Shown here in pieces: positions 20 through 61,882 of a stretch of 64,000 nt of DNA. Location: contig JAJNBB010000002.1 in assembly GCA_021155885.1 (NCBI GenBank), positions 2,929 to 66,928 of the forward strand. The letters run 5' to 3'. A program made the translations under genes and the position numbers. Each line of letters starts with the position of its first letter. The first letter of the stretch is position 1. Source of the stretch: Fibrobacteria bacterium (GTDB lineage: Bacteria; Fibrobacterota; Fibrobacteria; UBA11236). The notes beneath the pieces are model-generated. The model had not been told where the DNA came from and did not search any database. It saw nothing but the letters and a program-made list of their open reading frames with translations.

Positions 20-104
20 TTACAGCGGACAGCGAACAGCTGAACACAAAAAAAGCGACCCCGTGAGAAGTCGCCTTTTTTGTTTAGCTGTTCGCTGTCC
101 GCTA
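20..104. repeat. Copy 1 of a palindromic intergenic repeat family. Arms ACAGCGGACAGCGAACAGC / GCTGTTCGCTGTCCGCT flank an A-run / GC-stem / T-run hairpin.
   Basis: Inverted arms at 22-42 and 82-104, hairpin at 47-83. Related copies lie at 21290-21360 and 61768-61882. Confidence 0.7.
47..83. terminator. Bidirectional rho-independent terminator downstream of the prx gene (AAAAAAAGCGAC-loop-GTCGCCTTTTTTT).
   Basis: GC stem gcgac/gtcgc with an A-run upstream and a T-run downstream. It lies immediately 3' of the minus-strand peroxiredoxin stop at 102-104. Confidence 0.65.
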
Positions 105-743
105 CTTATTAGGCTGCGGCGTCATGCGGAGGTATGGCTTGATCACCTTGAATCCCTTGGGGAACCGGGTCTTCAATTCCTCGGGATCCTGGATGGCGGG
201 GGCGATCACGACGTCGTCGCCGTCCTTCCAGTTGACCGGGGTGGCGACCTTGTAGCCGTCGGTGAGCTGGAGCGAATCGATCACGCGCAGGATTTCGTGG
301 AAGTTGCGTCCCGTCGAGGCGGGATAGGTGATGATCGCGCGGATCTTTTTGTTCGGGTCGATGATGAACACCGAGCGCACGGTGAACTTGTCGTTCGACT
401 GCGGCTGGAACATCCCGTATAGCGTGGAGACCGACTTGTCCTCGTCGGCGACGATGGGGAAGTACACGTCGCAGTTCTGCGTCTCGTTGATGTCAGGGAT
501 CCACTTGGCGTGCGATTCCTCGCTGTCGACCGACAGGGCGATCACCTTCACGTTGCGCTTTTCCCACTCGGGACGCAGGCGCGCGGTCTCGCCCAGTTCG
601 GTGGTGCACACCGGGGTGAAGTCGGCGGGATGCGAGAAGAACACGGCCCAGTGCCCTTCGATGTACTTGTGGAAATGAAGCTTGCCCTGGCTGGAATGCT
701 GGTGAAAGTCGGGGGCGATATAACCGAGTTGCAGAACGGACAT
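102..743 (-). CDS. 1-Cys peroxiredoxin (AhpC/TSA family, Prx6-like).
   Basis: 213 aa with the FTPVCTTE peroxidatic cysteine motif and full-length similarity to 1-Cys Prx. Confidence 0.9.
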   Translation of the reverse strand: MSVLQLGYIAPDFHQHSSQGKLHFHKYIEGHWAVFFSHPADFTPVCTTELGETARLRPEWEKRNVKVIALSVDSEESHAKWIPDINETQNCDVYFPIVADEDKSVSTLYGMFQPQSNDKFTVRSVFIIDPNKKIRAIITYPASTGRNFHEILRVIDSLQLTDGYKVATPVNWKDGDDVVIAPAIQDPEELKTRFPKGFKVIKPYLRMTPQPNK

Positions 744-982
744 GGTATCTCCTGGTTAAAAGACCGTGGAAACAACTTACTAAGTGCGGACGCGCGCTTT
801 ACAACCCGTAACAGAAAGGGTGGCCTTTTTGCCCGGATTTTCGGGCCCCCGCCGGGTTTTTCCGCGGCCGGCTGGACGGGAAAAGGGGGCCTTGTATAAT
901 CCTCGCAGGCGCTTCCGGGCCATCGCCTCCGAGGGGGGACGCCGACGCGGAAGCACGCATCCACAGGAACAAGGAGAATGCC

Positions 983-1459
983 ATGAACGAACATACCGAA
1001 GGCTGGGGCGAAGTCGACCAGTCCATCACCATCGCCCGTCCCGCCCAGGAACTCTACGACATCTGGCGCGACCTCGGGTCGCTGCCCCACATCCTTTCGC
1101 ACGTGAAACTCGTGCGCGAGGACAGTCCCACCCAGTCGCACTGGATCGTGGAGGGGCCGCTCGGCACCGACATCGCCTGGGACAGCGTCATCACCCAGGA
1201 CATCCCCGGCAAGCGCATCAGCTGGCGCTCGGTGGAGGACGCCGACGTGGACAACGCCGGTACGGTGGAGTTCAACGCGGCGCCCGGGGCGATCTATACC
1301 GAGATGCGCGTGCGCATGTCCTATCGGCCCCCGGCGGGCGCCGTGGGCAAGGCCATCGCGGCCCTGTTCGGGAAGGACCCGAACGGACAGGTCGAGGATG
1401 ATTTGCAGAAGTTCAAGGAGAACGTGGAGGCCGGAACGTTCGGCCGGCACGCCGTCTAA
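983..1459 (+). CDS. SRPBCC-superfamily protein (polyketide cyclase/dehydrase, COQ10-like lipid-binding fold).
   Basis: 158 aa. The pattern WxxxxDxxxxPxxxxHV ... WxxxG resembles the cyclase/dehydrase START-like fold. Confidence 0.6.
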   Translation: MNEHTEGWGEVDQSITIARPAQELYDIWRDLGSLPHILSHVKLVREDSPTQSHWIVEGPLGTDIAWDSVITQDIPGKRISWRSVEDADVDNAGTVEFNAAPGAIYTEMRVRMSYRPPAGAVGKAIAALFGKDPNGQVEDDLQKFKENVEAGTFGRHAV

Positions 1460-1568
1460 TCGGGCTGCGAGCATCGCCAGGCAGCGTTGGCCCTCCTCGT
1501 CGTACTTTCGGTACGACTACGTCGGTCCGCCTTGCCTGCCTCGCTCTCGCTCCGATTAGAATTTGATC

Positions 1569-4355: not shown

Positions 4356-4405
4356 CGACAGCTTCCGGGAGGGCGCCTTGGCGCCCCGCTTCGGCTTTTC
4401 CGGCT

Positions 4406-5578: not shown

Positions 5579-5593
5579 AAGGGCGGCGGCGCG

Positions 5594-7852
5594 TCAAGGT
5601 ACCGTGATGATCTTGCCCTTATCCCCCGCCGCCACGATCGCGCTGCCCGTCCAAGCCAGGGCGCGCAGATCCAGAACGGTGGACGTATAGATCTCAACCC
5701 CCGGGGCGTCGTTCCTGGATGTGAAAAACGCTCCCCCGCTTCCTGCGTAAACCAACCGGTCGCCCGCCTGGATCACGGCATACAAGTTGGCCGTGGTTCC
5801 CGAAGGAAAATTCGTCCAGGATATCCCGTCGGAGGACGTCAGGATTTTGCCTTGCGCCCCCACCGCGACCGCCCGGCTTCCCGTCCAAGTGACCGCATAA
5901 AGAGGAACCGTCGTGCCGGAACTGCCGGGCGTCCAGGTGAGGCCATCCAGGGAGGTTACGAGAATGCCTCCATCCCCCACCGCGACGAACCGGGATCCTG
6001 TCCACGCGACGCCGTTCAAACTCCCGCCTCCGGAGGCGCGGTAGGTCCAGGCTGAGCCCTCGGAAGAAGTCCAGATGGCACCGGCCAAGTCCACGGCCAC
6101 CAGAAGACTGCCGGAATAAGCAATGCCGCTCAAGGTCGAAGGGGTGGGGAAACCTCCCCAGGAAGCCCAGGCCGCACCATCGGGAGAGGTTCCCACTGCG
6201 CCCCCCGTGCCCACCGCCACGAATTGGCTCCCTGTCCAAAGGGCAGCCTTGAAATCCTTGGTCGTACCCGAAACCCGCGCCGTCCAGGCCGTTCCATCCG
6301 AGGAAGCACGTAGGGTCCCTGCTGAACCGAAGGCGAAGAGTTGGCCTTGCTTTAGGACCAAAGCGTTCAGGTTAGGTCCCTCGATGGTGATGAACCCGGA
6401 TACCGCCGAGGGCGGTCCCTTGCCGATAGCGTTCACGGCCACGATATGGAAGCTATGAACGGATCCTTCAGCAAACCCGGTGAGGACGCAGGATAATGCT
6501 CCGGTCGTCTGGCAATGCCTGCCCGAATCCTGATCCGAAGTCGCGACGTAACCCGTGATGGCGGAGCCTCCGTCCAACGCGGGAGGACTCCAGCTCACGG
6601 TCACCTGACCGGGCGAGGCGACGGCCTTTACCTGTTGGGGCGCGCCCGGAGGCGTCGGGGTCCCCGGAGTCACGGGCTCGGAGGCGAGGGAAGCCGGACC
6701 GGCGCCCACGGCGTTCACGGCTACCACTGTGAACGTATAGGAGACTCCCGTGCTGAGTCCAGAAATCGCGCAGTTGGGAACGCCCGTGCTTGTGCATTTC
6801 CGCGTGGTGTCCTGATTCGTCGTTACGACATAGTGGGTAACGGCGGTGCCCCCATTCGATTCGGGAGCCGTCCATTGAAGGCTTACCTGCCCCGGTCCCG
6901 AGACGCCCACCGGTTTGCCCGGAGCGCTGGGACGGCGCCAGGGGCTTATGGAAGAGCTGGGGGCGGACGGCGGGCTTTTCCCGGAGGCGGACACGGCGAC
7001 GACGCGAAACGTATAAGAGGTCCCTTCCGCTAAACCGGTCACGGCGCAGGAACGCGTTCCCGATGTCTGGCAATGCTTGCTCGTATCCTGGTCCGCCGTG
7101 ACGCTATAGGCGGTCACGGAACCGCCATTAGAAACGGGAGCCGACCACGATACCGTCACCTGCCCCAAACCCGCGACAACCGTTATACCGATGGGTGCGC
7201 TGGGAGGTCCCCCGGGCTTGACCGTGGCCGAGGCTTGCGAAGCCGGCCCGGTGATGGGATTGAGCGCGTACACCACGAAGCTGTAACTCGTTCCGTTGAC
7301 CAGGTCCCCGACCGTGCAGGAAAGCGCGCCGTAGGCCACGCATTGCTTCAAAGGATCCTGAACGGAGCGCGCGATGTAGGCGAAAATGAGGTTGCCCCCG
7401 TTCGAGGCGGGAGCGCTCCACGACACGGTGACCTGGCCGTCTCCCGCCACGGCGGAGACGTTGAGGGGAGCGCTGGGGGCATAGTACACCCCCGTGGGGA
7501 CGACCGGATTCGAAGGAATAGAAGCCGGACTCGTGCCGGCGTCGTTCGTCGCCGTGACGATAAAGGTGTACGAGGCGCCGATGCCGAGTCCCGTGAGAAC
7601 GCAGGACGTCGCCTTCGAGACCGTGCAAAACCGTCCCGGGTCCTCCACCGCCCAGGCGGTGTAGGCGAGGATGGCGCTGCCCCCGTCGGATTTGGGCGCG
7701 GCCCAGGACACGGTGGCTTCGGCGTCGCCCGCCACGGCGACCACGTCGCGCGGGGCGGAGGGCGCTTCCTGCCCGCCGCCCAGCAACTCGCAGGAGAACA
7801 GGCACGCGGCGGCGGCCGCGGCGAGGATTTTCAGAATCCCGTGAACCTTCAT
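5594..7852 (-). CDS. Surface lipoprotein with at least five fibronectin type III domains followed by a BNR/Asp-box (Ycf48-like) beta-propeller.
   Basis: Lipobox signal (AAACLFSC). Repeated roughly 90-aa units with SAP..V.AVAGDG.VTVSW.AP..DGGS.I..Y (Fn3). The C-terminus has repeated S-x-D-G-x-x-W-T Asp-boxes (SSDGTAWT, SSEGSAWT, SLDGLTWT, SSDGISWT). Confidence 0.75.
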   Translation of the reverse strand: MKVHGILKILAAAAAACLFSCELLGGGQEAPSAPRDVVAVAGDAEATVSWAAPKSDGGSAILAYTAWAVEDPGRFCTVSKATSCVLTGLGIGASYTFIVTATNDAGTSPASIPSNPVVPTGVYYAPSAPLNVSAVAGDGQVTVSWSAPASNGGNLIFAYIARSVQDPLKQCVAYGALSCTVGDLVNGTSYSFVVYALNPITGPASQASATVKPGGPPSAPIGITVVAGLGQVTVSWSAPVSNGGSVTAYSVTADQDTSKHCQTSGTRSCAVTGLAEGTSYTFRVVAVSASGKSPPSAPSSSISPWRRPSAPGKPVGVSGPGQVSLQWTAPESNGGTAVTHYVVTTNQDTTRKCTSTGVPNCAISGLSTGVSYTFTVVAVNAVGAGPASLASEPVTPGTPTPPGAPQQVKAVASPGQVTVSWSPPALDGGSAITGYVATSDQDSGRHCQTTGALSCVLTGFAEGSVHSFHIVAVNAIGKGPPSAVSGFITIEGPNLNALVLKQGQLFAFGSAGTLRASSDGTAWTARVSGTTKDFKAALWTGSQFVAVGTGGAVGTSPDGAAWASWGGFPTPSTLSGIAYSGSLLVAVDLAGAIWTSSEGSAWTYRASGGGSLNGVAWTGSRFVAVGDGGILVTSLDGLTWTPGSSGTTVPLYAVTWTGSRAVAVGAQGKILTSSDGISWTNFPSGTTANLYAVIQAGDRLVYAGSGGAFFTSRNDAPGVEIYTSTVLDLRALAWTGSAIVAAGDKGKIITVP

Positions 7853-7967: not shown

Positions 7968-8360
7968 ATGACTTCCCCCTCCCTTTCCGGCGCCGTATTG
8001 CTGGGCCACGGAAGCCGCGAACCGGGGGCCCAGGCCGAGATCCGGGCGCTTCAAGCGGAGCTGGCCTCGGCCTTGCCCGACTGGCGCTTCACCCACGCCT
8101 TTCTCAACCAGGAACCGACGCTCGGGGACGCCGTGAACGAACTCGTGACCGCCGGATGCTCCCGCGTCCGCGTCCTCCCCTTGCTGGTCTTCACGGGGAA
8201 GCACGTCCTCGAGGACGTGCCCCGCGAAATCGAGCGGCTCCAGGGCCTGTACCCCCACGTTCATTTCGAGCGCGCGCCGCATCTCCACAACCTGTCCGGA
8301 TTTTCAGCCCTCCTCACCGGGGCTTTGCAAGAGTCCGCTTCCCAAGGAATTTCCCGCTAA
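7968..8360 (+). CDS. cbiX: CbiX-like small sirohydrochlorin chelatase (CbiXS).
   Basis: 130 aa with LLGHGSR and PLLVFTGKHVLEDVP motifs typical of short CbiX. Its TAA stop shares its A with the ATG of the downstream gene (TAATG). Confidence 0.65.
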   Translation: MTSPSLSGAVLLGHGSREPGAQAEIRALQAELASALPDWRFTHAFLNQEPTLGDAVNELVTAGCSRVRVLPLLVFTGKHVLEDVPREIERLQGLYPHVHFERAPHLHNLSGFSALLTGALQESASQGISR

Positions 8361-10132: not shown

Positions 10133-12259
10133 TTAGGGCGAGGAGGTAGCCAGGCTTCCGTTGGCGCCCACGACCACCCAGAGGCTGGAGTTCCCCGCGG
10201 CGCCGTACTGGTTGCCGTTCAGAACCGTCAGGGGGGCGCTGCCCCGGGAAGCGGTCGAGGATCCCAGCACCGTGCCCCCGCTGCCGACGATCAGCAATTG
10301 GTTTCCCATCCAGGCCACCCCGTATAACGCGGTGGTGGCGCCTGCGCCCGTGGTGCGCGCGGTCCAGGTGATCCCGTCCGCCGAGGCGTATTCATGCGGC
10401 GAGAAGTTCGCGCCCACGGCCACGAAGGCGGTTCCGGCCCACGCCACGGCATTGTAGGCGTTCGGCGTGGGCGAGAGGCGCGACGTCCAGGTGATTCCGT
10501 CGGCGGAGGTCACGATCGTCCCGGCCGCGCCCACGGCAACCCATTGTCCCTTCCCGGAACTCGACGGGGGCGACCACGCCACGCCGTTCAGGGCGTTGGC
10601 GGTGCCCGAGGTTCGCACGGTCCACGTCGCCGCGTCCGGCGAGGTGAGGATGGTCCCTGCCGCGCCCACGGCCACCCACTGCGAGTCGGCGCGGACCACG
10701 GCGGCCAGGGGATTCGTCGTGCCCGATTTCCGCGGCGTCCAGTTCATGCCGTTATCGGACGAGGTCAGGATCGTTCCGTCGGCGCCGACTACGGCCCAGA
10801 CGCCGCCGCCGTTCGCCACCCCGCCGAGGGCGGCGTCGCTTCCGGAGTTGCGCAGGGTCCAGGTCGTGCCGTTGGGCGAGGTCAGGACCGTGCCCGAATC
10901 TCCGACAGCGACGAAGACGCTTCCCGAGGTCGCCACCGCCTTCAAGGTGTTGGCCGTGCCTGAAGTCCGGACCGTCCAGGCCGGTGGAGAGGTCGGGGTG
11001 GCGGGGGCCGACGGCAGGGAAAGCGGGCCGGAGCCCGCGGCGTTGATCGCCCGCGCCACGAAGGTGTAGGCGGCGCCGTTGGTCAACCCGTAGATCGTGC
11101 AGGCGGGCCCCGTCGCCTCGCACGACTTCGCCGTGTCGGAAACGGCGTAGGCCTTGTAACCCGTGATCACCGACCCGCCGTTCGCGGCCGGGGCCGTCCA
11201 CGATACCAGGACTTCGGCGTGTCCGGGAACGGCGGTCACCCCGGTCGGGGCGCCGGGAACATCGATCACCGCGGCGGTGGGGGTCACCGGCGGGGAGGCC
11301 GCCGAGGCGGGGCCCGCGCCCCTGCCGTTGGTGGCCTTGACCGCGAAGGTATAGGCGACGCCGTTGGTCAGGCCCGGAATGACGCAGGTCCGGGTTCCCG
11401 TCGTCGCGCAGCTCTTCAGCGTGTCCGCCGTTGCGTAGGCCTTGTAGCGCGTGATCGGCAGGCCGCCGTCCAGGGCGGGGGGCGCCCACGATACCGTAAC
11501 TTGTCCGTTACCCACCTCCGCGAGCACCGAGTCGGGCGCGCCCGGAGGCCCCAGCCGGATCACGGGCGCGGAGGCCGCCGAAAGCGGCCCCTGGACGAGG
11601 CCGTTCCTTCCGAAAACCCGGAAGGTGTACGGGACGCCGTCGACCAGGCCGTCGACCAGGCAGGAACGCCGCTGGTCGGTTCCCGCGAGCGTCGTCGTGT
11701 CGCCGCAGCGCTTCGTGCTGTCCTCCACGGCGCGGACTTCATAGGTCGCGGCGATGGTGTCGCCGCCCGCGACCGCGTCCCAAAAAACCACGACCTCTCC
11801 GAGGACGAGGCCCGCCGTCACCTGCTCGGGCCGGCGCGGCGCGGCCGTGAGGACGATCTCCGCGCTTACCGTGAGGCACGTCGTCATGATCACGGGCCGG
11901 AAATCGTGGGTGCGCGCGGGCGCGCAGATTTCGGAGTATTCCCCGTCCGGGCTGCCCTGAGCATACACGGCGAAGGAAACGGCCACGCCGTGGGGAATCC
12001 CGGAAAGGACGCACGTCGTATCCGGATCGCTCACGGTGCAGTTCAGGCCGCCGTCCCGGAGCTCCCCGTTCTCGCGGATCAGAAAGGCCGTATACGAGAG
12101 GGCGCCGGCGGAGCGGTTCCAGGTCAAAGTCACCGCATGGTCGCCCGGCTCCACGGAGAGGGCCTCTATCTCGGCGGGAACGCCTGGCTGCTCGGCGACC
12201 AAACAGGAAGCCAATAGCCCCGCCAAAAGGGCCATTCCCATCGAAAAAACCTTTTTCAT
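10133..12259 (-). CDS. Second Fn3-repeat plus BNR beta-propeller surface lipoprotein, a paralog of 5594-7852.
   Basis: Start at MKKVFSMGMALLAGLLASC (lipobox). Multiple Fn3 units (VTVSW.PPALDGG, VLVSWTAPAANGGS) followed by Asp-box repeats (SPNGTTWT, SSDNGMNWT, SPDAATWT, SADGITWT, SADGITWT). Confidence 0.75.
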   Translation of the reverse strand: MKKVFSMGMALLAGLLASCLVAEQPGVPAEIEALSVEPGDHAVTLTWNRSAGALSYTAFLIRENGELRDGGLNCTVSDPDTTCVLSGIPHGVAVSFAVYAQGSPDGEYSEICAPARTHDFRPVIMTTCLTVSAEIVLTAAPRRPEQVTAGLVLGEVVVFWDAVAGGDTIAATYEVRAVEDSTKRCGDTTTLAGTDQRRSCLVDGLVDGVPYTFRVFGRNGLVQGPLSAASAPVIRLGPPGAPDSVLAEVGNGQVTVSWAPPALDGGLPITRYKAYATADTLKSCATTGTRTCVIPGLTNGVAYTFAVKATNGRGAGPASAASPPVTPTAAVIDVPGAPTGVTAVPGHAEVLVSWTAPAANGGSVITGYKAYAVSDTAKSCEATGPACTIYGLTNGAAYTFVARAINAAGSGPLSLPSAPATPTSPPAWTVRTSGTANTLKAVATSGSVFVAVGDSGTVLTSPNGTTWTLRNSGSDAALGGVANGGGVWAVVGADGTILTSSDNGMNWTPRKSGTTNPLAAVVRADSQWVAVGAAGTILTSPDAATWTVRTSGTANALNGVAWSPPSSSGKGQWVAVGAAGTIVTSADGITWTSRLSPTPNAYNAVAWAGTAFVAVGANFSPHEYASADGITWTARTTGAGATTALYGVAWMGNQLLIVGSGGTVLGSSTASRGSAPLTVLNGNQYGAAGNSSLWVVVGANGSLATSSP

Positions 12260-12603
12260 TGCTTCAAATATACGTTTGCCTCTCCGCTCGCCATGCCCGC
12301 GCGCGCTAGCAACCTCGCGATGCCCGCGACGTGGCAAGCCTGCGTCCGATGGCTAAACGGCCTCAAAATCGCGACTTCGCCGTCCGGTCGCGTTATCGGT
12401 TTTCCAACAACCTCTCTCTTCGCCGTCAGGGACGCGGCGCGCGACCGCCGGTCGTCGGCGCCGTTTTCCGATTTAAAGAGGATCACAAATTTTTACCAAA
12501 AACCTGTGCATTCCGGGCTCTTTTCGACGTTATCACCAAACCCCGCGGCCAATTCGAACGAGCCGAACTAGCTATATTTGCCTCTCCCACCCGCGAGAAC
12601 TTT

Positions 12604-18692: not shown

Positions 18693-21280
18693 TGAGCAGG
18701 CAAGACGGCAGGAAAAAAGCATGGGCGGGCGCGGTCGGCGCCCTCGCCCTGCTATGCCTGTGCCTGGGCCCGGCGCCGGCCGCGGCGCGCGACGCGCGCT
18801 ATGCCGAGGAACAAAGGGCGCTGGAGAACGCGCGCTACCTGTTCGAGATCGAGGGCGACAACGCGGGCGCTTACGCCATCCTCGACAAGTTGAAGGATTC
18901 CCGCAACGAGGAGATTCGCGCACAAGGGCTGTACCTGCGCGGTTTCTTTCTGGAAGAACAGGGTAAAACGGCCGAGGCCATCCGGCTGTATACCGGGGCG
19001 CTCGGCAGCGACGGCCTTCCCCCGCCGCAGAAACAGCGCCTGATCGCGCGCCTGCTGGAACTGAACCCCGAGGCCATCAAACCCTTCCGCGAGGCCGGAA
19101 AAACCCGGGGGCTGCCGGCGCGCGTGTTCGAAAGCCCCTCGGCGGCGGGAACGGTGTACGTGCTGGCGCAGGCCGGCGACGGGGAACGGGCGACCCGGCT
19201 TTCGGTGCAGGACAATCAGGGGATGCTGCGATCGCTGAACGCCGCCCTCACGGCGGACGAAGAGGTTCTCGACGCCACTCCCGACCGGGTGTTGACCCGC
19301 AGCCTTTCCCGCCAGAGAATTTTCCTGCGCCGCGCGCCGCGCTTCGCCGCGGTGGTGGCCGAGGAAAAATTCCAGGCGCTGGACGGATTCCTGTTCTCCG
19401 GGGAGTCCGGTGAATTCCTGCTCATCGGCGAAAGGGGCGTGCGGCTCATGCGCGGCGCGCAAACGTTGTTCTCGCACCCGCTTCCGGGGCCGGGCTGCGT
19501 CTACCACCCCTCGGCGCCGCGCGCGCGTCAGGGCGTTCTCTTCTGTCCCGGCCAGGGCCTCTACCGCGCCGACTTCGCGCGCCGCTCGCTCACGCCCCTT
19601 CCCCTCGCCGGGGAGGCCCCCTCCGAGGTCGTGCTCTCCGGGGAATACCTCGCGCTTCGCTATGTGGACAAGGTGGAAATCCGGCGCGGTCCCGCCTTCA
19701 ACGCCTTTCTCTGGGGATTCCCCTCGGGCCTTCAGGACCCCCTGGTATTGGGCCGCGGGCACGCCTTTTTGGCCTCGGGCGGCGGACCCCTGCGCGCCTT
19801 CTCGCTGCGGACCGGCCGCCTCGACTGGCAGCGCGACATCGGCGCCTCCGCGCTGCGGGCCGAAGGCGGTGAACTCTTCGTGCTCACGCACGCCCGCACC
19901 TGCCTCGCGCTCGACGAAAGGGGGCGCCTGCTTTACACCTACGAAACCGGATGGACCGAGGAAGAACCCCTGCTGCTGCCCACCCGCGACTGGCTGGTCG
20001 TGCAGCAAGCCGGAGGCGGGCGCACGCGCCTCAATCGCGAACTGCTCCGCCTGACGGGCCCCCACCGGGAATACCTGTTCCACGAGGTGAACGCGAACCT
20101 CGCGCGGGGCGATGCGCGCGGCGCGCTCAAGGAACTCAATTCCCTGATCGCCCTGGAACCCGGCAACGGCGCGGCCTGGCGAGAAAAAGCGCGCCTGCTG
20201 CCCGGCCTCGGCGCCTCCCGCGCCGAACAGACGCACGCCTGGCTGCAGGCCGCGCGTTCCGCCGGCGCCGCGCCCTGGAGCGCCGATCCGGCGTTCCGCA
20301 GCCTTTCGGCGGGTCTCGGGGCCGCCTGGACCTGGAAACGGCAGCCGGGTCCGCGCTTCTTCCCCGCCCTCACGGGCGGCCGCCAATTCGCCTTCTACGT
20401 GGAAAACGACAATCAAACCCTGGTGGTTCTCGATTCCCGCTCGGGCGCGCTCAAGGGAAGCTACCGCTTTCCGGAACCCCTCGATCTCAAGGTGGCGGCA
20501 TGGACGGGAGACACGCTGGTGGTATCGAGCGCGACCCGCCTGTACCTGATGGCGCCGCTGCGCGGGACCACGGTGCTCGCGCAAATCCGGCTGCGCAATC
20601 CCGTGGGACAGGCGCTGATGCTGCCCGAAGGTCTGCTCCTCAGCGACTGGAACGGGAACCTGCAACTGCTGGATCTCGCCGCGCGGCGGCCGCGCTGGGA
20701 AGCCCGCCTGGGCCGCGGAGGGCTCTTGCTGGCGCGCGTGAAAAGCGCCGGCGAGGTGGACGTCGCCGAAATCGAGGGCGGGTACCATCGCGTCCGCCTG
20801 CAGGACGGACGGAGCCTCGGGAGCCTGCGCCTGCCGCCGGGAACGATCACGGAGATCCACGCCGGCGAGGACCTCGCCTACGTGGGCTACAACGAAGGGC
20901 TCATCGTCGGCATCGACCGCGCCCGCACCGCCATCGCCTGGCAACGCGACATGGGAGAGCAGATCTTCAGCCTTTCCGGGCGCGGCGACCAGGTGCTGAT
21001 CGTCGGAACGGCCTCGAAGCGCATCCTCAACCTCCGCGGCAAGACCGGGGCCCCGCAATCCCAGACGCAGGTTTCCACCTATCTGTTCAACCGTCCCGTC
21101 CTCACCGACGAGGGCTATTGGATCGGCACCACCGAGCCCGCCCTCGAAAAGCGGTCCTGGGCCCACGTCGTGCTGCTCAAGCTGCCCCTGACCGACATGC
21201 CCGGAACGCCCTCCTTGGTGGGCCCCGGCATCGCCGTCTCCACCCTCGACAACTTCATCCTGCTGTTTCAGGCAAAGTGA
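18689..21280 (+). CDS. Secreted TPR plus PQQ-like beta-propeller repeat protein.
   Basis: The start (ATGATG) overlaps the response-regulator stop. Signal peptide (WAGAVGALALLCLCLGPAPAAA), N-terminal TPR-like helices, then repeated W-x-R/A-D/R-xG propeller blades (WQRDIG, WEARLG, WQRDMG). Confidence 0.7.
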   Translation: MMSRQDGRKKAWAGAVGALALLCLCLGPAPAAARDARYAEEQRALENARYLFEIEGDNAGAYAILDKLKDSRNEEIRAQGLYLRGFFLEEQGKTAEAIRLYTGALGSDGLPPPQKQRLIARLLELNPEAIKPFREAGKTRGLPARVFESPSAAGTVYVLAQAGDGERATRLSVQDNQGMLRSLNAALTADEEVLDATPDRVLTRSLSRQRIFLRRAPRFAAVVAEEKFQALDGFLFSGESGEFLLIGERGVRLMRGAQTLFSHPLPGPGCVYHPSAPRARQGVLFCPGQGLYRADFARRSLTPLPLAGEAPSEVVLSGEYLALRYVDKVEIRRGPAFNAFLWGFPSGLQDPLVLGRGHAFLASGGGPLRAFSLRTGRLDWQRDIGASALRAEGGELFVLTHARTCLALDERGRLLYTYETGWTEEEPLLLPTRDWLVVQQAGGGRTRLNRELLRLTGPHREYLFHEVNANLARGDARGALKELNSLIALEPGNGAAWREKARLLPGLGASRAEQTHAWLQAARSAGAAPWSADPAFRSLSAGLGAAWTWKRQPGPRFFPALTGGRQFAFYVENDNQTLVVLDSRSGALKGSYRFPEPLDLKVAAWTGDTLVVSSATRLYLMAPLRGTTVLAQIRLRNPVGQALMLPEGLLLSDWNGNLQLLDLAARRPRWEARLGRGGLLLARVKSAGEVDVAEIEGGYHRVRLQDGRSLGSLRLPPGTITEIHAGEDLAYVGYNEGLIVGIDRARTAIAWQRDMGEQIFSLSGRGDQVLIVGTASKRILNLRGKTGAPQSQTQVSTYLFNRPVLTDEGYWIGTTEPALEKRSWAHVVLLKLPLTDMPGTPSLVGPGIAVSTLDNFILLFQAK

Positions 21281-21289: not shown

Positions 21290-21360
21290 TCGTAGCGAAC
21301 AGCGTACAGCCGGAAAACCCGGAATGCAGCGTTTGCTGTCAGCTGTACGCTGTCCGCTAG
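21290..21360. repeat. Copy 2 of the palindromic intergenic repeat family (GCGAACAGCGTACAGC ... AGCTGTACGCTGTCCGCT).
   Basis: Inverted arms at 21294-21310 and 21341-21358 around a CCGG-AAAAC-CCGG mini-hairpin. It sits between the TPR/PQQ gene stop and pssA. Confidence 0.7.
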
Positions 21361-29065: not shown

Positions 29066-30229
29066 CTAGAGCGGCAGGCGCGGGACGCGCACCTCGGTTT
29101 CGGTTCCCCGGTCCGTTGATTTGATTTTAAAGCGCCCATTCACGGAGGCCGCCCGTTCACGCATGCCTAGGAGTCCAAGACCGGCTCGCCGCTTCCCCTT
29201 GGGCAGAGACCCGGAATCGGAGTCAAAGCCTTTTCCATCGTCGTGAATGACCAGCCGAACGCCATCCACGTGCGTCGACAGCCTTATGCTTACGTGACGC
29301 GCCTTGGCATGCTTCTCCACGTTTCTCAGGGTTTCCTGCAGGATCCGGTAGAGCGCCAGTTCGGTATCGGCGGACAGGCGCGCCGCGAGCTTTACGAACG
29401 CCTCTTTGACGGGAATTCCCGTCCGCTTGCAGAACTCCGCGCTGATGTCCTGAAGGCCCGCCGCCAGGCCCAAGGTATCCAAAACGCTGGGCCGGAGATT
29501 GCGGGAGATGCTCTCCACTTCGTCGACCGTAGCGCCGATCATGGCAGAGAGCTTCAGGGCCGCGGCCTTCGACTTTACATCGCGGGCCGTAAGGCCCTTG
29601 GCAAGCACCTTGCTGTAGATGAGGATACCGCAAAGCATTTGCGTGATCGTGTCGTGCAGTTCATGGGAAAGGCGCACGCGCTCCTCTTCCTGCACCTGCA
29701 ATACCCGATGCGTGAGCGCCCTTAACCGCTCCTCGGACTTGTGGGCGCCCGTCATGTCGGTCACCACCATGCTGAGCGTGGCATCCCCGGAGCCGGTCCG
29801 GGAATCGTGATTCGCGATCGGGCGGATCGAAATATTCACGGGTATCTCCGACCCGCCTCCGACCCGAAGTTTCGCCTGCATCTTGAAGCCCGCCCTGCGG
29901 GGCCGCTTGAGAAGGGACCCGAGCACCGCCCGATCCTCAACGGAAAGAAAACGATGGAAAGGTCCGCCCGTAACCTGCTCGAGAGGATCTTTCACCATCC
30001 GGGCAAAGCACTCGTTGGCGTAGAGAATGGTCTTGTTCGCCGTGAGCGTCAGCGCGCCTTCATTCATGGATTCGATAAGCATCCGGTAGGCGTGCCCTTC
30101 TCCCTCCAGGGTGAAAACCTTGGAACCGTCCTTGCCGGCGACCACCACCGTATCCACCTCGCCCATGCGGATGGCGCGCAGCGCTTCTTCCGCTTCCGCC
30201 AACCGGACGCGGAGCCCGGGTGTTTTCAA
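29066..30229 (-). CDS. PAS-sensor histidine kinase of the HisKA_3 (NarL/DegS partner) type; last gene of the kai operon.
   Basis: N-terminal coiled coil, PAS fold (ALTLTANKTILYANECFARMV), HisKA_3 H-box (RLSHELHDTITQML), and HATPase_c (HDDGKGF, GLGLLGMRERA). The start overlaps the kaiB2 stop (ATGA). Confidence 0.85.
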   Translation of the reverse strand: MKTPGLRVRLAEAEEALRAIRMGEVDTVVVAGKDGSKVFTLEGEGHAYRMLIESMNEGALTLTANKTILYANECFARMVKDPLEQVTGGPFHRFLSVEDRAVLGSLLKRPRRAGFKMQAKLRVGGGSEIPVNISIRPIANHDSRTGSGDATLSMVVTDMTGAHKSEERLRALTHRVLQVQEEERVRLSHELHDTITQMLCGILIYSKVLAKGLTARDVKSKAAALKLSAMIGATVDEVESISRNLRPSVLDTLGLAAGLQDISAEFCKRTGIPVKEAFVKLAARLSADTELALYRILQETLRNVEKHAKARHVSIRLSTHVDGVRLVIHDDGKGFDSDSGSLPKGKRRAGLGLLGMRERAASVNGRFKIKSTDRGTETEVRVPRLPL

Positions 30230-30579
30230 GCGGCCGCCTTAGGGGGCGGGATCAGGTCAAGCTCGGCGAACAGTCCGGAAATATTCAGCAGGTTGCCGAT
30301 GAACCGGCGCGCCGGCTTGGGCCGTTCCTTGACAAGGGTCGGCGTGGCAATGATCTGGTTCGCGCGCGCCAACTCGGGCTGCTGATAGATATCGACCACT
30401 TCCAGAACAAAATTGTCCGGAATCTCCGCCTCGCACAAGTGGCGGATCCTGAGCACCGCCTCGCGCGACCGGGTCGTGGCCCCGGCCACGAACAGGCGCA
30501 TGACATACTTTTTGCGAGGCCCCGCGCTCCCGGATTGCGGAGAAGTCCTTGCGACGGGAGGCGTGCGTTTGCGCTTCAT
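30226..30579 (-). CDS. kaiB: KaiB-family protein, copy 2, with a basic N-terminal extension.
   Basis: YVMRLFVAGATTRSREAVLRIRHLCE...FVLEVVDIYQQPELARANQIIATPTLVK matches the KaiB thioredoxin-like core. About 25 extra K/R-rich residues at the N-terminus. Confidence 0.85.
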   Translation of the reverse strand: MKRKRTPPVARTSPQSGSAGPRKKYVMRLFVAGATTRSREAVLRIRHLCEAEIPDNFVLEVVDIYQQPELARANQIIATPTLVKERPKPARRFIGNLLNISGLFAELDLIPPPKAAA

Positions 30580-30583
30580 GGGT

Positions 30584-30895
30584 TCACTCCGGTTTGCCCG
30601 CGAGGCGAAGATCCAGCCCGACCAGGGCCCTTTCCGTATCGGAAAGATTGCCGATGAGCACGCGCACGGGCTTCGGCAATAACCTTACCACCGTGGGAAT
30701 GGCGAGGATCTGGTCGCCTTTGGCCAGCTTGGGATGCTTCCTCAAATCGATCACCCGGATGTGGTAGCGCCCCTTTAGATGGGTTTCGCAAAATTCCTTA
30801 AGATTCGCGAGCGCGATTCCCGATCGGGGCGACTGATCGTTCACATACAGGCGCAATTGCCATTTTTCGACTTGGGCGGTTTTGGCAGGAGTCAT
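30584..30895 (-). CDS. kaiB: KaiB-family protein, copy 1 (canonical length).
   Basis: WQLRLYVNDQSPRSGIALANLKEFCE...YHIRVIDLRKHPKLAKGDQILAIPTVVR. 103 aa. The start overlaps the kaiC stop (ATGA). Confidence 0.88.
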   Translation of the reverse strand: MTPAKTAQVEKWQLRLYVNDQSPRSGIALANLKEFCETHLKGRYHIRVIDLRKHPKLAKGDQILAIPTVVRLLPKPVRVLIGNLSDTERALVGLDLRLAGKPE

Positions 30896-32673: not shown

Positions 32674-32795
32674 TCGGGGTCCTTTGGAAACGCCACTTCC
32701 AAATACCCCGCCCGGTGAGAAGACGGTATGGGGTCAAACCCTACCCCAGGCGATAAACCGCGTCCGGCGCCCTTCACGCCGCGGGAAGCCGGTTC

Positions 32796-38037: not shown

Positions 38038-38070
38038 CAAAAAAAGCCCGCGGCAACGCGGGCTTTTTTC
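38038..38070 (+). terminator. Rho-independent terminator AAAAAAAGCCCGCG-GCAAC-CGCGGGCTTTTTT after fkpA.
   Basis: Perfect 7-bp GC stem, A-run before it and T6 after it. Confidence 0.85.
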
Positions 38071-38108
38071 GTGGGCCGATTTCGAGCGGGTCGGGCTCGG
38101 GCGGGAAA

Positions 38109-38568
38109 GGACTTAGGACTTAGGGCTTAGGTGGCATAGGTTTTGATATGAGTCCTTGACCTTTGGAGGCCAACCATGCGAAATTATCGTGCGCTCATGA
38201 TCTGGAAAAAATCTCACGAATTCTCTCTGGAAATTTATCGGCTGACACATGAATTTCCACGAAGGGAAATTTATGGCTTGACAAGTCAAATCAGACGCGC
38301 CAGCGCCTCTGTTCCGACCAATATTGCGGAGGGATGCGGACGAAACGGAAACCCTGAATTCATCCACTTTCTTCAAATTGCGCTGGGATCAGCCAATGAA
38401 GTCGATTACCAGATCCTGCTATCCAAAGATCTGGGATACCTACCGCAAGCCGACTATGAGCGACTCTGTGAAAGTTCTAGTGAACTTCGGCGGATGCTTG
38501 CCACCTTTATTCGGAACGCACGTACCCTACCGGCACATAGGCCGTACCTAAGCCCTAAGTCCTAAGCC
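38109..38568. mobile_element. Low-GC cassette bounded by perfect inverted repeats CTTAGGACTTAGGGCTTAGGT / ACCTAAGCCCTAAGTCCTAAG, carrying a four-helix-bundle (IVS-type) gene.
   Basis: Inverted repeats at 38112-38132 and 38546-38566. The interior is about 45-50 % GC versus about 68 % around it. No transposase is present. Confidence 0.4.
38176..38565 (+). CDS. Four-helix-bundle protein (23S rRNA intervening-sequence protein family, TIGR02436).
   Basis: 129 aa. WKKSHEFSLEIYRLT...LTSQIRRASASVPTNIAEG...FLQIALGSANEVDYQILLSKDLGYL is diagnostic for this family. Confidence 0.85.
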   Translation: MRNYRALMIWKKSHEFSLEIYRLTHEFPRREIYGLTSQIRRASASVPTNIAEGCGRNGNPEFIHFLQIALGSANEVDYQILLSKDLGYLPQADYERLCESSSELRRMLATFIRNARTLPAHRPYLSPKS

Positions 38569-39729
38569 CTTCATCAAACTCGGTGCCAGCACGGATGAGT
38601 ACTTCTTCCGGATCCACGCCTCGTCCGGCTTGTCCTTGCCCCCCTGCAGCAGGCGCAGGTCGGCGTCGAGGGCATAGAGGTAGGGGTACCACTCCAGCTT
38701 GAGAGGGGACTTCCAGTCCCAGATCAGGGGCTTGAGCGTCGCCCGATGGGCCTTGAGCTTGGCGGGCGTCAGATCCTTGGGGGCGAGACGCACGAAGGGC
38801 GATGCGATCAGCCCCGCGATCTTCTGAAACTCCGCGGGGACATCCCAGGCCTTCAAAGCCTTCTTCCACGCAGTCGCGGGCGATTCGCCGCGCAAAAAAC
38901 CGCCGAGCAGGTCCAGGTAGAACAGGTCGGTATGGTACAGACCCGTGGGATTGATCAGCATGCCCCGCGTCGTCTTTAGCAGGGCCTTGGACCGGCCCGC
39001 GAAGGGGCCGAGGAAGATCTTGCCGGGGCAATAGTCGTTGGCGTAGAGATTGTCCCAGATCACGGGGGCGGCGCCGGCGCGGCGGGTCACGGCTTTCATA
39101 TCGGCGGCGGAATAATCCGGCGATACGATGGCGCGGCCGGTCCACATCACTTCGATACCGGGAACGATGAATGGCTTCAGGTCGCGCAGGTAGGCGCTCT
39201 TTTCGATTCCCTCGGGCGCGAAAAAGTCGCTGTACACCGTGGGGCAAAACCACAGGCGGCGAATCCCCTGCTTTTGCAAGCGCGGCCACAGCTTTTGCAG
39301 CATCAACCCGTGCGCCTCGCCCAGGGAGCGAAAGAAGGGGCGGTCCGCCGCGGGAAGTTCCACGGGGATGTCGTCCATCAGCAGGGCGGCCTCTTCGCAG
39401 CCCAGCTCCGTGAGCGAACGCAACTTGCGGACCAGCGCCTCGAAGTCCCCGGGCTTGCGGTAGCGGTAGCTCAGGCCGGGCGCGAGCCCCGGCACGACGT
39501 GCACGCCCAGTTTTTTGGACGTGGCGACGAAGGCCTTGAAGTCTCCCCTCCAGGCGGCGGGGTAAGGCGCACGCCATTCCTTGCGGTGGTAGAGATCTTC
39601 CTTGGGGGCATAGAGATAATGCCCGGCGCCGATTTCCTGCAGCTTGCGGACGAGGCCCAGCCGCTCGGAAAACGTGAGCAGCCGGCCGTAGTAGCCTTCG
39701 ATATAGCCGGAGAGGAAGGGACGGGTCAT
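38548..39729 (-). CDS. GH84-family beta-N-acetylglucosaminidase (O-GlcNAcase/NagJ-like) catalytic domain protein.
   Basis: YIEGYYGRLLTF, LLMDDIP and VIWDNLYANDY motifs of the GH84 TIM barrel. Its stop codon lies inside the right inverted repeat of the cassette. Confidence 0.65.
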   Translation of the reverse strand: MTRPFLSGYIEGYYGRLLTFSERLGLVRKLQEIGAGHYLYAPKEDLYHRKEWRAPYPAAWRGDFKAFVATSKKLGVHVVPGLAPGLSYRYRKPGDFEALVRKLRSLTELGCEEAALLMDDIPVELPAADRPFFRSLGEAHGLMLQKLWPRLQKQGIRRLWFCPTVYSDFFAPEGIEKSAYLRDLKPFIVPGIEVMWTGRAIVSPDYSAADMKAVTRRAGAAPVIWDNLYANDYCPGKIFLGPFAGRSKALLKTTRGMLINPTGLYHTDLFYLDLLGGFLRGESPATAWKKALKAWDVPAEFQKIAGLIASPFVRLAPKDLTPAKLKAHRATLKPLIWDWKSPLKLEWYPYLYALDADLRLLQGGKDKPDEAWIRKKYSSVLAPSLMKGLGLRA

Positions 39730-41996: not shown

Positions 41997-43229
41997 GTGA
42001 ATTCCGCACCGCGCACCGGGCTCCAAACCGAAGGCAAATCCGCCCGTTCCCGGGTCCTGGGAACGGTCCTGGGGATTTTGGGGACGGGATTCGGAAGCGC
42101 CTTCGCCCTCGAGCAGACCTCCGGCGTCAACCTGACCGCCAGCGAAGGCTTCGGCGCGCGCCAGCAGGGCATGGCCGTGCAGCGCGCGGGCTTCGCGCAG
42201 GGCGCCGACGCGGTCGTCAACGCCCCCGCCTCAATGAACGACGTCAACGACTTCACGTTCTCCACCGGACACGCCGAACAGTTCGGGATGGCGCGTTTCG
42301 ACAACTTCGCCCTGCTCATCCCCTGGCACGCGCGGAGCACCTTGGGCCTCGCGGTCGCGCGGTACTCCGTCACCGGCATCGAGCAGTACGGCTCGGATTT
42401 CGATCCGGCCACCGAATCCGATCCCGACGGCCTCTTCGACGCCGCCGACTGGATGGTCTCCGGGGCCTTCGCCCGCCGCTTCGGGGCATTCGACGTCGGC
42501 GGCGCGGTGCATTTGCTGCGCCGGCAACTGGACCAAAGCGGGCTCGGCATGCGCGGCGACCTGATGGGCCAGTATACCTACGACCGCCGCTACCGCGCCG
42601 GCGCCTTTATCCGCGGGGCGCTGCCTTCCACCGCCGCGTGGGAGGAAGGCCTCACCGAGTATGAGGCGCCCGAAGCGTCGCTGTTCGTCTCGGGCCTCTG
42701 GCCCCTCCCCTACTTTTACGGGTCGCTGCAGGCCGGGCTCGAAACCCCCGGCATCTTTCAATACGGAGCCCGCTCCAGCTCGCGGCTCGAGGGCGAACGC
42801 GGCATCACCGATCCCGCGTCGGTGATCCGAACCTCGCGGGTCGGCGCGGAATTCAACTTCGACTTCGGCCTGAGTCTGCGCGCCGGGTTCGACGAGCTCG
42901 CCCCCTCCGCCTGGGGTTCTTCGGCGCGCCTGGGCATGGGCTACCACTGGCGGAACATCCTGGGCATCGACTACGCTTTCTCGGCCCACCCCTACCTCGA
43001 CCAAAGTCATCGCATCTCCCTGCGCTTCACCCCCTCGTTCCCCAAGTTCGAGGGCCGCAATTTCCGGCCGCGCGAGCCGCAACGCAATCGGGACCGCATT
43101 CCCCGGCCCGATTATCGCCCCACCTATCCCTCGCCCTATACCCCGGGCAAGCCCTTGCCCGATCCGGCCCCCGAGGAACTGGAAGAGGAAGAGCTGGAAG
43201 AAGGGGAGATTCAAGAGATCGTGGAGTAG
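41997..43229 (+). CDS. Hypothetical outer-membrane beta-barrel-like protein (possibly PorQ/PorV-type) with an acidic C-terminal tail.
   Basis: Signal-like N-terminus, alternating-hydrophobicity strands, aromatic-rich segments, and a C-terminal Pro/Arg-rich then EELEEEELEEGE tail. Family assignment is uncertain. Confidence 0.45.
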   Translation: MNSAPRTGLQTEGKSARSRVLGTVLGILGTGFGSAFALEQTSGVNLTASEGFGARQQGMAVQRAGFAQGADAVVNAPASMNDVNDFTFSTGHAEQFGMARFDNFALLIPWHARSTLGLAVARYSVTGIEQYGSDFDPATESDPDGLFDAADWMVSGAFARRFGAFDVGGAVHLLRRQLDQSGLGMRGDLMGQYTYDRRYRAGAFIRGALPSTAAWEEGLTEYEAPEASLFVSGLWPLPYFYGSLQAGLETPGIFQYGARSSSRLEGERGITDPASVIRTSRVGAEFNFDFGLSLRAGFDELAPSAWGSSARLGMGYHWRNILGIDYAFSAHPYLDQSHRISLRFTPSFPKFEGRNFRPREPQRNRDRIPRPDYRPTYPSPYTPGKPLPDPAPEELEEEELEEGEIQEIVE

Positions 43230-43354
43230 GCAGGGACAGTTGAGAGTTGACGGTTGACAGGGAAGGTAGTCCGTAGGCAAAACTACCGGCCTTGCGGGTC
43301 TATTGACCCGTCCTGTCAACTGTCCACTGTCAACCGTCAACTATCTTTCCTCCC

Positions 43355-53271: not shown

Positions 53272-53275
53272 GATG

Positions 53276-54647: not shown

Positions 54648-54660
54648 CCCTCCCGCGCGA

Positions 54661-55155: not shown

Positions 55156-55235
55156 GATGCTTGCAGAAAGGATTCCGGGAAAGGACCCCTTAAATATACC
55201 CACCCGACGGCCCGAAACGCACCCGGCGCGTCCGT

Positions 55236-57005: not shown

Positions 57006-57148
57006 GGTAAGGCCGGTAAAATAGGTTCTGAGCGCAAAATACTGTCACCGAATCTTCTCGTCCCGGCCTTTTTTCCACAAGGAGGCGGGTGCCCGTTCCC
57101 GGGTTGTGCAGCTTCGGGAACGCCGGGCGGATGCTTATCTTCCGGTCC

Positions 57149-60909: not shown

Positions 60910-60964
60910 GAAGATGATAAGGTAGGGAATTGGGGAAGGTTTTTGTTATACTTTCCGTCCCGTC

Positions 60965-61038
60965 GCAGGTGTGGCCAAACTGGATAAGGCATCTGACTAC
61001 GAATCAGAAGACTCCAGGTTCGAATCCTGGCACTTGCA
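60965..61038 (+). tRNA. tRNA-Arg (anticodon ACG).
   Basis: Cloverleaf with acceptor GCAGGTG/CACTTGC (one G-U pair), T-arm CCAGG-TTCGAAT-CCTGG, anticodon stem TCTGA/TCAGA with loop CTACGAA, and discriminator A. CCA is not encoded. Confidence 0.85.
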
Positions 61039-61314
61039 CGGGACTTCTCTTTATACTTCCAGCGCGCCCCCCTCCCCGCGGGGCTTTCGCGCCCCGCCCC
61101 ACGGCACGGCCGGGACTCCCGGGGCAACCGCCCCAATTTCCTCTCGCGTTTGACGGATTCCTTACCGGGCTCGACCGGACGTTCGTTTCATCCGCCCGCC
61201 CCGGTAACCGTTTACAACAGGCGGGTTGCAAGCGTGGATCGCCCGTCGGTTTCTTGTAGACTGATTCCAGGCCCGCCACGCGGGCGAACCATCACCTGAA
61301 CCCGGAGTCGTCTC

Positions 61315-61767
61315 ATGGATCCAATCGCACTTTTGAAGGCCGATCACAGGAAGGTCGAGGAACTGTTCAAGAAGCTGGAGGATACCACGGAGCGCGCCGT
61401 GAAGACGCGCACCGAGCTGTTCGAAAAGCTGAGGATGGAATTGACCGTCCATGCCCTCGCCGAGGAAGCGGTGCTGTATCCCGAAAACAAGGAGATCCCG
61501 TCAACGCGCGAACTCGGCTTCGAGGCCGTGGAAGAGCACCACGTCGTGAAAATCCTGCTGGACGAGCTTTCCGAGCTTTCCCCCGATACCGAGGAATGGA
61601 CGGCCAAGCTTTCGGTGCTGAAGGAAAACGTCCAGCATCACGTCAAGGAAGAAGAGGGGGAGATCTTCCCCAAGACGAAGAAGGCCCTGTCGGCGGAGGA
61701 GCTCGACGAAATGGGCGCCCGCCTTTTCGAGGAAAAGGAAAAGCTGCTGGGGCATATGCCGGCATAG
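61315..61767 (+). CDS. Hemerythrin HHE cation-binding domain protein.
   Basis: Paired H...E / HH...E motifs (HRKVEELF, EEHHVVK, QHHVKEEE). 150 aa. Confidence 0.8.
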   Translation: MDPIALLKADHRKVEELFKKLEDTTERAVKTRTELFEKLRMELTVHALAEEAVLYPENKEIPSTRELGFEAVEEHHVVKILLDELSELSPDTEEWTAKLSVLKENVQHHVKEEEGEIFPKTKKALSAEELDEMGARLFEEKEKLLGHMPA

Positions 61768-61882
61768 CTACCAGCGTACAGCGGACAGCGTACAGCCGGA
61801 AAACGGGGGATATTCCGACCTTCCCCCTCTTTTCCAGCTGTACGCTGCCCGCTGTCGCTGTACGCTGTCCGCTGTTCGCTTC
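61768..61882. repeat. Copy 3 of the palindromic intergenic repeat family (CCAGCGTACAGCGGACAGCGTACAGC ... AGCTGTACGCTGCCCGCTGTCGCTGTACGCTGTCCGCTGTTCGCT) enclosing a terminator-like hairpin.
   Basis: Arms at 61771-61796 and 61836-61880. Internal GGGGGA..TCCCCC stem followed by TCTTTT. It starts immediately after the hemerythrin stop. Confidence 0.7.

Follow-up and report, generated by a model that had tools for sequence, protein, structure and literature searches.

Inverted heptamer arrays at gene ends in a Fibrobacteria genome and their likeness to intervening sequences that carry a PF05635 gene

What are the palindromic repeats that recur at gene ends in a Fibrobacteria bacterium (Fibrobacterota; UBA11236), and to which class of elements do they belong? 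The question arises from a stretch of 64,000 nucleotides (positions 2,929 to 66,928 of contig JAJNBB010000002.1, assembly GCA_021155885.1; hereafter the window), in which a first-pass annotation had recognized three copies of such a repeat. On balance, these copies (E1 to E3) are probably gene-less members of a class of heptamer-armed hairpins that resembles the intervening sequences (IVS) of 23S rRNA genes, and they would act as RNA stem-loops at the 3' ends of genes, as judged from predicted folds and analogy. The design of this class is that of two inverted arrays of 3-7 tandem heptamers (with an NCAGCNN-like left arm) on either side of a short and variable middle part. This single metagenome-assembled genome contains at least three sequence families, namely ACAGCGN (three copies), GACAGTT (one copy) and AGGACTT (one copy). 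The five elements of the window are given below, with E1 to E3 for ACAGCGN copies 1 to 3, E4 for the AGGACTT element and E5 for the GACAGTT element.

E1, 20-104: unit ACAGCGN; arms 22-40 and 85-103; inner terminator hairpin at ~48-80
E2, 21290-21360: unit ACAGCGN; arms 21294-21310 and 21335-21358; short inner hairpin CCGGAAAACCCGG, no U-tract
E3, 61766-61882: unit ACAGCGN; left arm 61766-61796 (~4 units), right arm 61837-61880 (~6-7 units)
E4, 38107-38571: unit AGGACTT / AAGTCCT; 26-nt arms 38107-38132 and 38546-38571, 96% complementary; encloses a PF05635 gene
PF05635 gene within E4, 38176-38565, plus strand: four-helix-bundle protein of 129 aa; PF05635 E = 1.4e-40, TIGR02436 E = 5e-41
E5, 43235-43342: unit GACAGTT / CTGTCAA; arms 43235-43260 and 43313-43342

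The repeat unit of the arms measures seven bases. The first-pass annotation had taken the arms for hexamer repeats, which has to be corrected to heptamers (ACAGCGN / NCGCTGT, period 7); Tandem Repeats Finder returns the units ACAGCGA, CAGCGTA and GCTGTCC in the ACAGCGN copies. In a separate scan of the window, eight arrays of period 7 were found versus 0, 3, 0 and 2 arrays of periods 5, 6, 8 and 9, respectively. All eight pair as inverted arms, giving the five elements, and the arms comprise 2.5 to 7 tandem 7-nt units, i.e., paired inverted arrays of the Xanthomonas type. The proposed three-copy family is thus retained for ACAGCGN, but two more inverted heptamer elements (38107-38571 and 43235-43342) have to be added. 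DNA stretches used for comparison, either metagenome loci or orthologous regions of relatives, carry L numbers, and L203 covers a flank of the window. There, between ruvB and ruvA (L203 15479-15579), lies a sixth element, (GGGGACG)n, which is graded as possible only, because mismatches recur each 7 bp and the z-score of its fold is only -2.2. No Rfam family was matched by any element; the sole Rfam match in the window was one tRNA (a tRNA gene at 60965-61038, 67.6 bits, lies ~730 nt upstream of E3).

The kinship of E1 to E3 follows from their common sequence. The 17-nt core AGCGGACAGCGWACAGC, searched on both strands with up to three mismatches, has 12 matches in the window, all within 17-103, 21294-21358 and 61766-61880. 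The expectation from 100 dinucleotide-preserving shuffles is 0.39 matches, and none of these shuffles reaches 12, so that three copies with common inverted arms are indeed present where they had been reported. Exact core matches are found in E1 at 24-40 (+) and 87-103 (-), within inverted arms of 28 nt that are 93% complementary. A three-way alignment yields a common left arm, (T/A)ACAGCG[GA]ACAGCG[AT]ACAGC, and a common right arm, CAGCTGT[AT]CGCTG[TC]CCGCT, in which the variable seventh position of each unit is also shared. In addition, E2 and E3 share CCGGAAAAC just inside the left arm. Because the variable positions are identical in all three, E1 to E3 appear to have been copied between loci rather than formed by independent slippage. 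Within this common frame the copies differ in their centre (the inner hairpin of E3 is GGAAAACGGGGG...CCCCCTCTTTTCC) and in arm length, as the right arm of E3 holds a 20-nt internal duplication (periods 7 and 20) and is longer than the left arm.

All three copies were said to enclose a stem-loop, and long hairpins are predicted throughout. The predicted folding energies amount to -53.4 kcal/mol (z -11.0) for the plus strand and -60.3 kcal/mol (z -11.5) for the minus strand of E1, -37.2 kcal/mol (z -4.9) for E2, -69.5 kcal/mol (z -9.6) for E3 and -59.1 kcal/mol (z -6.3) for E5. In these folds the arms of E1 to E3 and E5 form near-perfect stems of 17-30 bp. The proposal that the repeats captured or created terminators fits copy 1, in which an A-run, a GC stem and a T-run, inside the heptamer arms, make up a predicted bidirectional intrinsic terminator. 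It fails for copies 2 and 3: E2, E3 and also E5 lack a U-tract after the stem, and all three lie between same-strand genes. The element sequences are identical across three to five independent metagenome assemblies (in five for E3), with constant array copy number, and are therefore no assembly artefacts. One contig, L205, ends (at 2141) inside E1 (window 1-104), which suggests that the hairpins break short-read assemblies.

Except for E4, the elements (E1, E2, E3 and E5) follow a stop codon at 0-10 nt or share bases with it, and the gene context given earlier for the three copies was recovered, namely AhpC/1-Cys Prx for E1, a PQQ/TPR beta-propeller protein followed by a CDP-alcohol phosphatidyltransferase for E2, and hemerythrin followed by YtfJ for E3. 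E1 is flanked by convergent genes, i.e., prx (102-743, minus strand), whose stop codon (102-104) overlaps the end of the right arm, and a 132-aa gene beyond the left end of the window. E2 begins 10 nt past the PQQ/TPR stop codon (21280), its end being 30 nt away from the phosphatidyltransferase start (21390), E3 begins at the hemerythrin stop codon (61765-61767) with ytfJ (61909) downstream, and E5 starts 5 nt past the stop of a 410-aa gene (41997-43229), the next same-strand gene following at 43355. With such a placement, a role as RNA hairpin at the 3' end, similar to that of repetitive extragenic palindromic (REP) sequences, is plausible for the copies.

E4 provides the link to IVS. It is situated between the terminator of an FKBP gene (38040-38072) and the 3' end of a convergent NAGidase gene (38548-39729, minus strand), and its GC content of 48% contrasts with 64% for the genes on either side. 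When 38095-38585 is folded globally as RNA (-168 kcal/mol, z -4.65), the arms are predicted to pair and thereby to close the entire element. The right arm encodes the last six NAGidase codons plus the stop TAG (38548-38550), giving a C-terminus ...SLMKGLGLRA* where relatives have ...KLLS* or ...KLLT*. The stop TAA (38563-38565) of the four-helix-bundle gene is also located in this arm, and the two open reading frames (ORFs) overlap by 18 nt. PF05635 bears the label '23S rRNA-intervening sequence protein', and TIGR02436 that of 'four helix bundle protein'. Taken together, E4 is an IVS-like PF05635 cassette that was inserted as a unit, outside rRNA. Two further ideas about E4 were discarded. Because 7 cannot be divided evenly by 3, any stop codon within a heptamer appears in all three frames over three units; a general function of the heptamers as three-frame stop signals would fit E4 and GCTGANN arms (TGA), but ACAGCGN contains no stop on either strand. 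The protein was also considered as an Avd of a diversity-generating retroelement (DGR), in which the avd gene lies next to a reverse transcriptase and to template and variable repeats (TR/VR). It scores 22.5 bits against an Avd equivalog cut-off of 80, and its neighbours are FKBP and NAGidase, with no reverse transcriptase nearby.

Comparison with relatives indicates how the elements came to be where they are. The FKBP-NAGidase spacer contains only the bidirectional terminator in L213 (NAGidase 81% identical; 66 nt) and L214 (71%; 104 nt), and in L211 (86%) it is occupied by an unrelated ORF of 128 aa, heptamers being absent. At the E2 site, L216, L217 and L218 (91, 82 and 64% protein identity) have no such element, and E2 takes the place of the ancestral spacer rather than extending it; by this comparison E2 is a recent gain. 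L214 lacks an element at the E5 site and instead has one with a 25-bp stem, (GACGGTA)n, elsewhere (8210-8352), in the spacer between divergently transcribed genes. In L211, a degenerate counterpart with a different heptamer occupies the E5 site; its fold is no better than that of shuffles (z 0), for which reason it was not used as a case of compensatory change. Presence/absence polymorphism is thus seen at the orthologous sites of E2, E4 and E5, and the comparison shows the elements to be real, dispersed and lineage-specific insertions. They seem to be gained and lost quickly, because ~125 kb of DNA from relatives holds only about three heptamer arrays. Two observations from the relatives concern other repeats. 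At the empty FKBP-NAGidase site of L213 (4455-4515), the terminator lies within a palindromic extension of period 9, (GCCAAAAAA)2 ... (TTTTTTGGC)2, which hints that repeat-armed palindromes may also grow in place around terminators. L216 has a G-rich array (GGGGNTC)n at 20196-20220, between gcpE and a TetR gene, that resembles the GGGAATC repeat of Xanthomonas.

How general the association between PF05635 genes and heptamer arms is was assessed on 80 metagenome loci encoding relatives of the E4 ORF. A heptamer array is present at most 250 nt upstream of the gene in 51 of these loci, at most 250 nt downstream in 53 and on both sides in 37. Array density is ~2.2/kb near the gene versus 0.19/kb at more than 400 nt. 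In the 70 loci whose flanks each measure 120 nt or more, these flanks were tested for arms with an ungapped complementarity score of at least 14. Complementary arms flank the PF05635 gene in ~73% (n = 51), of which 49 are heptamer-periodic, compared to 0 of 70 with a shuffled flank and 11 in direct orientation. Arm complementarity is 88-100% in the window elements and metagenome loci alike. Upstream arms have the consensus unit TCAGCNN and downstream arms NNGCTGA, the median arm counting 4.4 units, and the window units ACAGCGN and GACAGTT are close variants of it. Other unit cores also occur (TCAGT, TTAGC, TAAGT and TCAGA), and two loci, L146 and L151, have octamer arms (GTCAGTNN, TCGGTCTT). 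None of the 80 loci contains rRNA. Arrays are close to the PF05635 gene in six out of nine loci on viral contigs, and gene-less inverted pairs with the heptamer family of nearby cassettes are present within a few kb in L198, L180 and L221.

A few of these loci have an unusual layout. The most extreme density is found in L134 (contig Ga0194127_10004024), where a single PF05635 gene is surrounded by eight heptamer arrays within 4.3 kb, built from no fewer than seven kinds of units (including TCGCCAT, TCATTGT, AACGNGG, TCAGAAA, ATTCCGC, TCCACCC and ATCAGCC). In L126, L145 and L193 (~200 nt upstream of the PF05635 gene), a left arm, ~100 nt, a right arm, the ORF and a second right arm follow each other. 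Two hairpins could thus be formed by the left arm, depending on the right arm with which it pairs: a short one without the gene or a long one with it. The duplicated right arm of E3 (61837-61880) is similar to this layout.

The converse scan, in which genome contigs were queried with ACAGCGNACAGCGNACAGC, i.e., (ACAGCGN)3, gives a wider picture (the source genome is not visibly among the matches listed). Such arrays occur in at least 119 loci across many phyla, mostly one-armed and with 3-20 units; among the matches listed, an inverted partner is found in only three of 119. PF05635 cassettes are a subset living inside inverted arrays, and heptamer arrays as such are the wider phenomenon. The first-pass suggestion that the repeat may mark the species is abandoned, given the many phyla with (ACAGCGN)n arrays and an inverted-array design that PF05635 cassettes share across metagenomes. 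In the literature, the Coxiella paper (Warrier et al. 2016, PMC4990558) is the only one found that links PF05635/TIGR02436 genes to heptamer repeats, an absence that proves nothing about other reports.

Could the elements simply be non-functional simple sequence repeats (SSRs), i.e., slippage arrays whose palindromes grew in place around terminators by hairpin-templated repair, without transposition or selection? Such an origin would readily account for changes in array length like the duplication in E3, and both the one-armed ACAGCGN arrays of many phyla and the period-9 palindrome around a plain terminator in L213 speak for it. Heptamers also dominate the long SSRs (Mrazek 2007, as cited in PMC4679880). 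Furthermore, pairing of the arms is often possible in shifted registers, with a score of 19.2 for the best register compared to 14.4 after a shift of 7 or 14 and with a clear preference in only 19 of 51 loci (no claim that variable positions lock the register was made, given selection bias). Nevertheless, we consider this explanation unlikely. The common order of variable positions in E1 to E3 and the additional non-repeat sequence shared by E2 and E3 indicate copying between distant loci, E4, together with its low-GC gene, came as one unit to a site where relatives have no heptamers, and the arms stay 88-100% complementary, with no variation of copy number among the three to five assemblies.

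Less probable still is a function at the DNA level, in which the arrays would bind a pentameric four-helix-bundle protein or another factor and control recombination, replication or transcription. Iterated 7-bp units with a conserved core of ~5 bases (TCAGC) and two free positions would suit such a binding array, as would the tight association with PF05635 genes and the location of the L214 element (8210-8352) in a divergent promoter region. Avd, a relative of the PF05635 protein, binds nucleic acids in DGRs, although the Avd match of the E4 protein is below the cut-off. On the other hand, the cores are diverse in one genome (ACAGCGN, GACAGTT, AGGACTT, GGGGACG), with one PF05635 gene in the ~80 kb seen of the source organism. 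What all elements have in common is the complementarity of the arms and no single sequence, and four of the five window elements directly follow stop codons.

We therefore return to the reading of E1 to E3 as gene-less IVS-like hairpins at gene 3' ends. According to this reading, the arms, once transcribed, would pair into a long stem of double-stranded RNA with which the upstream cistron ends on its 3' side. This stem may serve as a processing or stability element, most likely as an RNase III substrate and/or as a barrier to 3' exonucleases, and could insulate neighbouring cistrons and so render the insertion harmless. In E1, the centre would double as a bidirectional intrinsic terminator. 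The experimental precedent is the 23S rRNA IVS of Coxiella burnetii, which holds an S23p ORF (PF05635 family), is closed by a terminal stem of 28 bp and includes tandem GACAGAT heptamers, their number differing from strain to strain; in vitro, this IVS is cleaved by RNase III in the stem, where the first repeat lies (Warrier et al. 2016, PMC4990558).

Several points weigh against this reading. The proposed role in RNA derives from structure, position and that single precedent, which comes from a distant bacterium. ACAGCGN arms were not found around any PF05635 gene, E1 to E3 contain no PF05635 gene themselves, and among the matches listed in the converse scan a PF05635 ORF lies within the 8-kb stretch in one of 119 ACAGCGN loci. 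As heptamer arrays are far more widespread than the cassettes, the kinship between gene-less and gene-carrying elements rests on shared architecture and co-occurrence. Arms that can often be paired in several registers would be expected of simple repeats, and related elements fold weakly (L203 ruvB-ruvA, z -2.2; L211, z 0). In E1 the U-tract of the terminator lies within the arms, so that these would pair only in read-through RNA or in DNA, and terminated transcripts would lack the 3' arm. Finally, inspection revealed no direct repeats of the kind that a target-site duplication would leave at the borders of E1 to E5, and no mobilizing enzyme is seen: a Y1 transposase or REP-associated tyrosine transposase (RAYT; PF01797), any other transposase and a reverse transcriptase are absent among the Pfam-annotated genes of the stretches covered (~0-9, 14-26.5, 28-50 and 54-64 kb of the window plus ~15 kb flanks).

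The latter finding also bears on the initial classification of the repeats as a family like REP, bacterial interspersed mosaic elements (BIME) or MITEs (miniature transposable elements with inverted repeats). REP/BIME elements are single imperfect palindromes of 20-40 nt with a conserved GTAG/CTAC head that are present in tens to hundreds of copies per genome, and the gene of the mobilizing RAYT, a Y1 transposase, is usually flanked by REPs. Dispersed extragenic palindromes at gene 3' ends, several of them with common arms, do recall the REPs of Enterobacteria and Pseudomonas, as does their possible capacity to stabilize upstream mRNA or to aid termination; this part of the classification holds, and E2, the recent gain, starts with GTAGCG. 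The architecture does not agree: the arms are tandem heptamer arrays, the GTAG head precedes only E2 and is absent from E1 and E3, and just three ACAGCGN copies are seen in ~80 kb. A RAYT acting on a single sequence would moreover leave unexplained why one design occurs with unrelated heptamers in one genome. With no Y1_Tnp/RAYT gene among the annotated genes covered, mobilization by a RAYT encoded elsewhere in the genome is highly unlikely. That the elements are ordinary Rho-independent terminators with stems that are long by chance is scarcely tenable, as it suits E1 (with its A-run, GC-rich stem and T-run between convergent genes), but no U-tract follows the stem in E2, E3 and E5, each flanked by same-strand genes, the heptamer arms of E1 are outside its terminator, and heptamer arms are absent from the plain terminator at 38040-38072 as well as from its counterparts in L211, L213 and L214.

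A broader hypothesis, which we put forward tentatively and regard as rather doubtful, is that heptamer-armed PF05635/TIGR02436 genes constitute a widespread, unrecognized class of mobile cassettes, of which rRNA IVS would be rare landings in rRNA and the gene-less hairpins non-autonomous or decayed derivatives, with the stem as the functional module, a self-insulating double-stranded RNA and RNase III site by which the cassette could reside harmlessly in transcribed DNA. The heptamer stem might also be the recognition site for whatever moves the cassette. Taken alone, the three copies are another case of a published yet little-studied kind of repeat, now in Fibrobacterota, and could serve as strain markers or assembly breakpoints. 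Of greater interest, though less certain, are the general cassette of PF05635 gene and heptamer arms and the way in which it relates to rRNA IVS. This pattern connects the excess of heptamer SSRs, the inverted pairs of Xanthomonas and the heptamer stem of the Coxiella IVS, gives a handle on the old question of the nature and origin of rRNA intervening sequences, and suggests a role, open to testing, for the 'hypothetical' four-helix-bundle proteins, which form a very large family.

Some other features were observed along the way. A cluster at ~30200-32700 of the window (L200 2051-4498) encodes a KaiC-like ATPase, two adjacent KaiB proteins and a HisKA_3 sensor kinase, and is absent from the syntenic region of L216 and L217. 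Two large ORFs on the minus strand (5594-7852 and 10133-12337) contain internal repeats of ~273-285 nt (families D1, D2, D5 and D15), for which the Pfam annotation as fibronectin type III points to tandem domains. Small stand-alone genes for a GIY-YIG nuclease domain (96-108 aa) are found in L203 (13765-14055) and L214 (15656-15982), without flanking heptamer arrays.

How do the elements relate to known systems other than REP/BIME? Similar to MITEs, the gene-less elements are short (70-120 bp), have terminal inverted repeats, occur in several near-identical copies and show presence/absence polymorphism, and E4 may represent a longer gene-carrying counterpart. The differences are that no target-site duplication is seen, that the inverted repeats are internally repetitive, and that E4, the only gene-carrying form, encodes no recognizable transposase and uses a different heptamer.

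Among the long SSRs of many bacteria, heptamers are the most frequent type (Mrazek 2007, as cited in PMC4679880), and one-armed arrays related to those described here are known from Nostoc (GGGGAYT), from the STRR (short tandemly repeated repetitive) sequences of cyanobacteria and from Beggiatoaceae (TAACTGA; MacGregor 2015, PMC4679880). A close match for the gene-less elements is found in Xanthomonas, with ~185 GGGAATC arrays per genome, of which 70-75 convergent pairs are able to form stem-loops at a mean distance of 28 nt from the upstream ORF end; their sites are not conserved between species and show no tie to known mobile elements (Rehm et al. 2015, PMC4692102). The common traits include tandem 7-nt units with few variable positions, typically about four per array, frequent convergent pairs able to form a stem-loop or cruciform, and a dispersed, intergenic location near the upstream ORF end at sites that are unconserved between related species, without association with known transposable elements. 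Unlike the Xanthomonas repeat, ACAGCGN, GACAGTT and AGGACTT are not G-rich and form no G-quadruplex, only the weak GGGGACG element of L203 being G-rich. Several unrelated heptamer families moreover share one genome here, and the host is a member of Fibrobacterota. The link with a PF05635 gene, as in E4, is not made in the Xanthomonas, Nostoc and Beggiatoaceae papers; S23p/PF05635 is not mentioned by Rehm et al. (PMC4692102).

It is this link that brings the window elements close to IVS. For the 23S rRNA IVS, the site of insertion is helix 25 or helix 45 of the 23S rRNA gene. In contrast, the window elements lie outside rRNA (the window contains none), and E1, E2, E3 and E5 carry no ORF. Yet E4 matches the ORF-carrying IVS of Coxiella and Leptospira (PMC4990558) in a PF05635-family ORF of ~120-130 aa in an element of 430-470 nt, in a stem of 26-28 bp made of terminal inverted heptamer repeats (GACAGAT in Coxiella; cf. 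GACAGTT in E5), and in its foreign-looking character and sporadic distribution.

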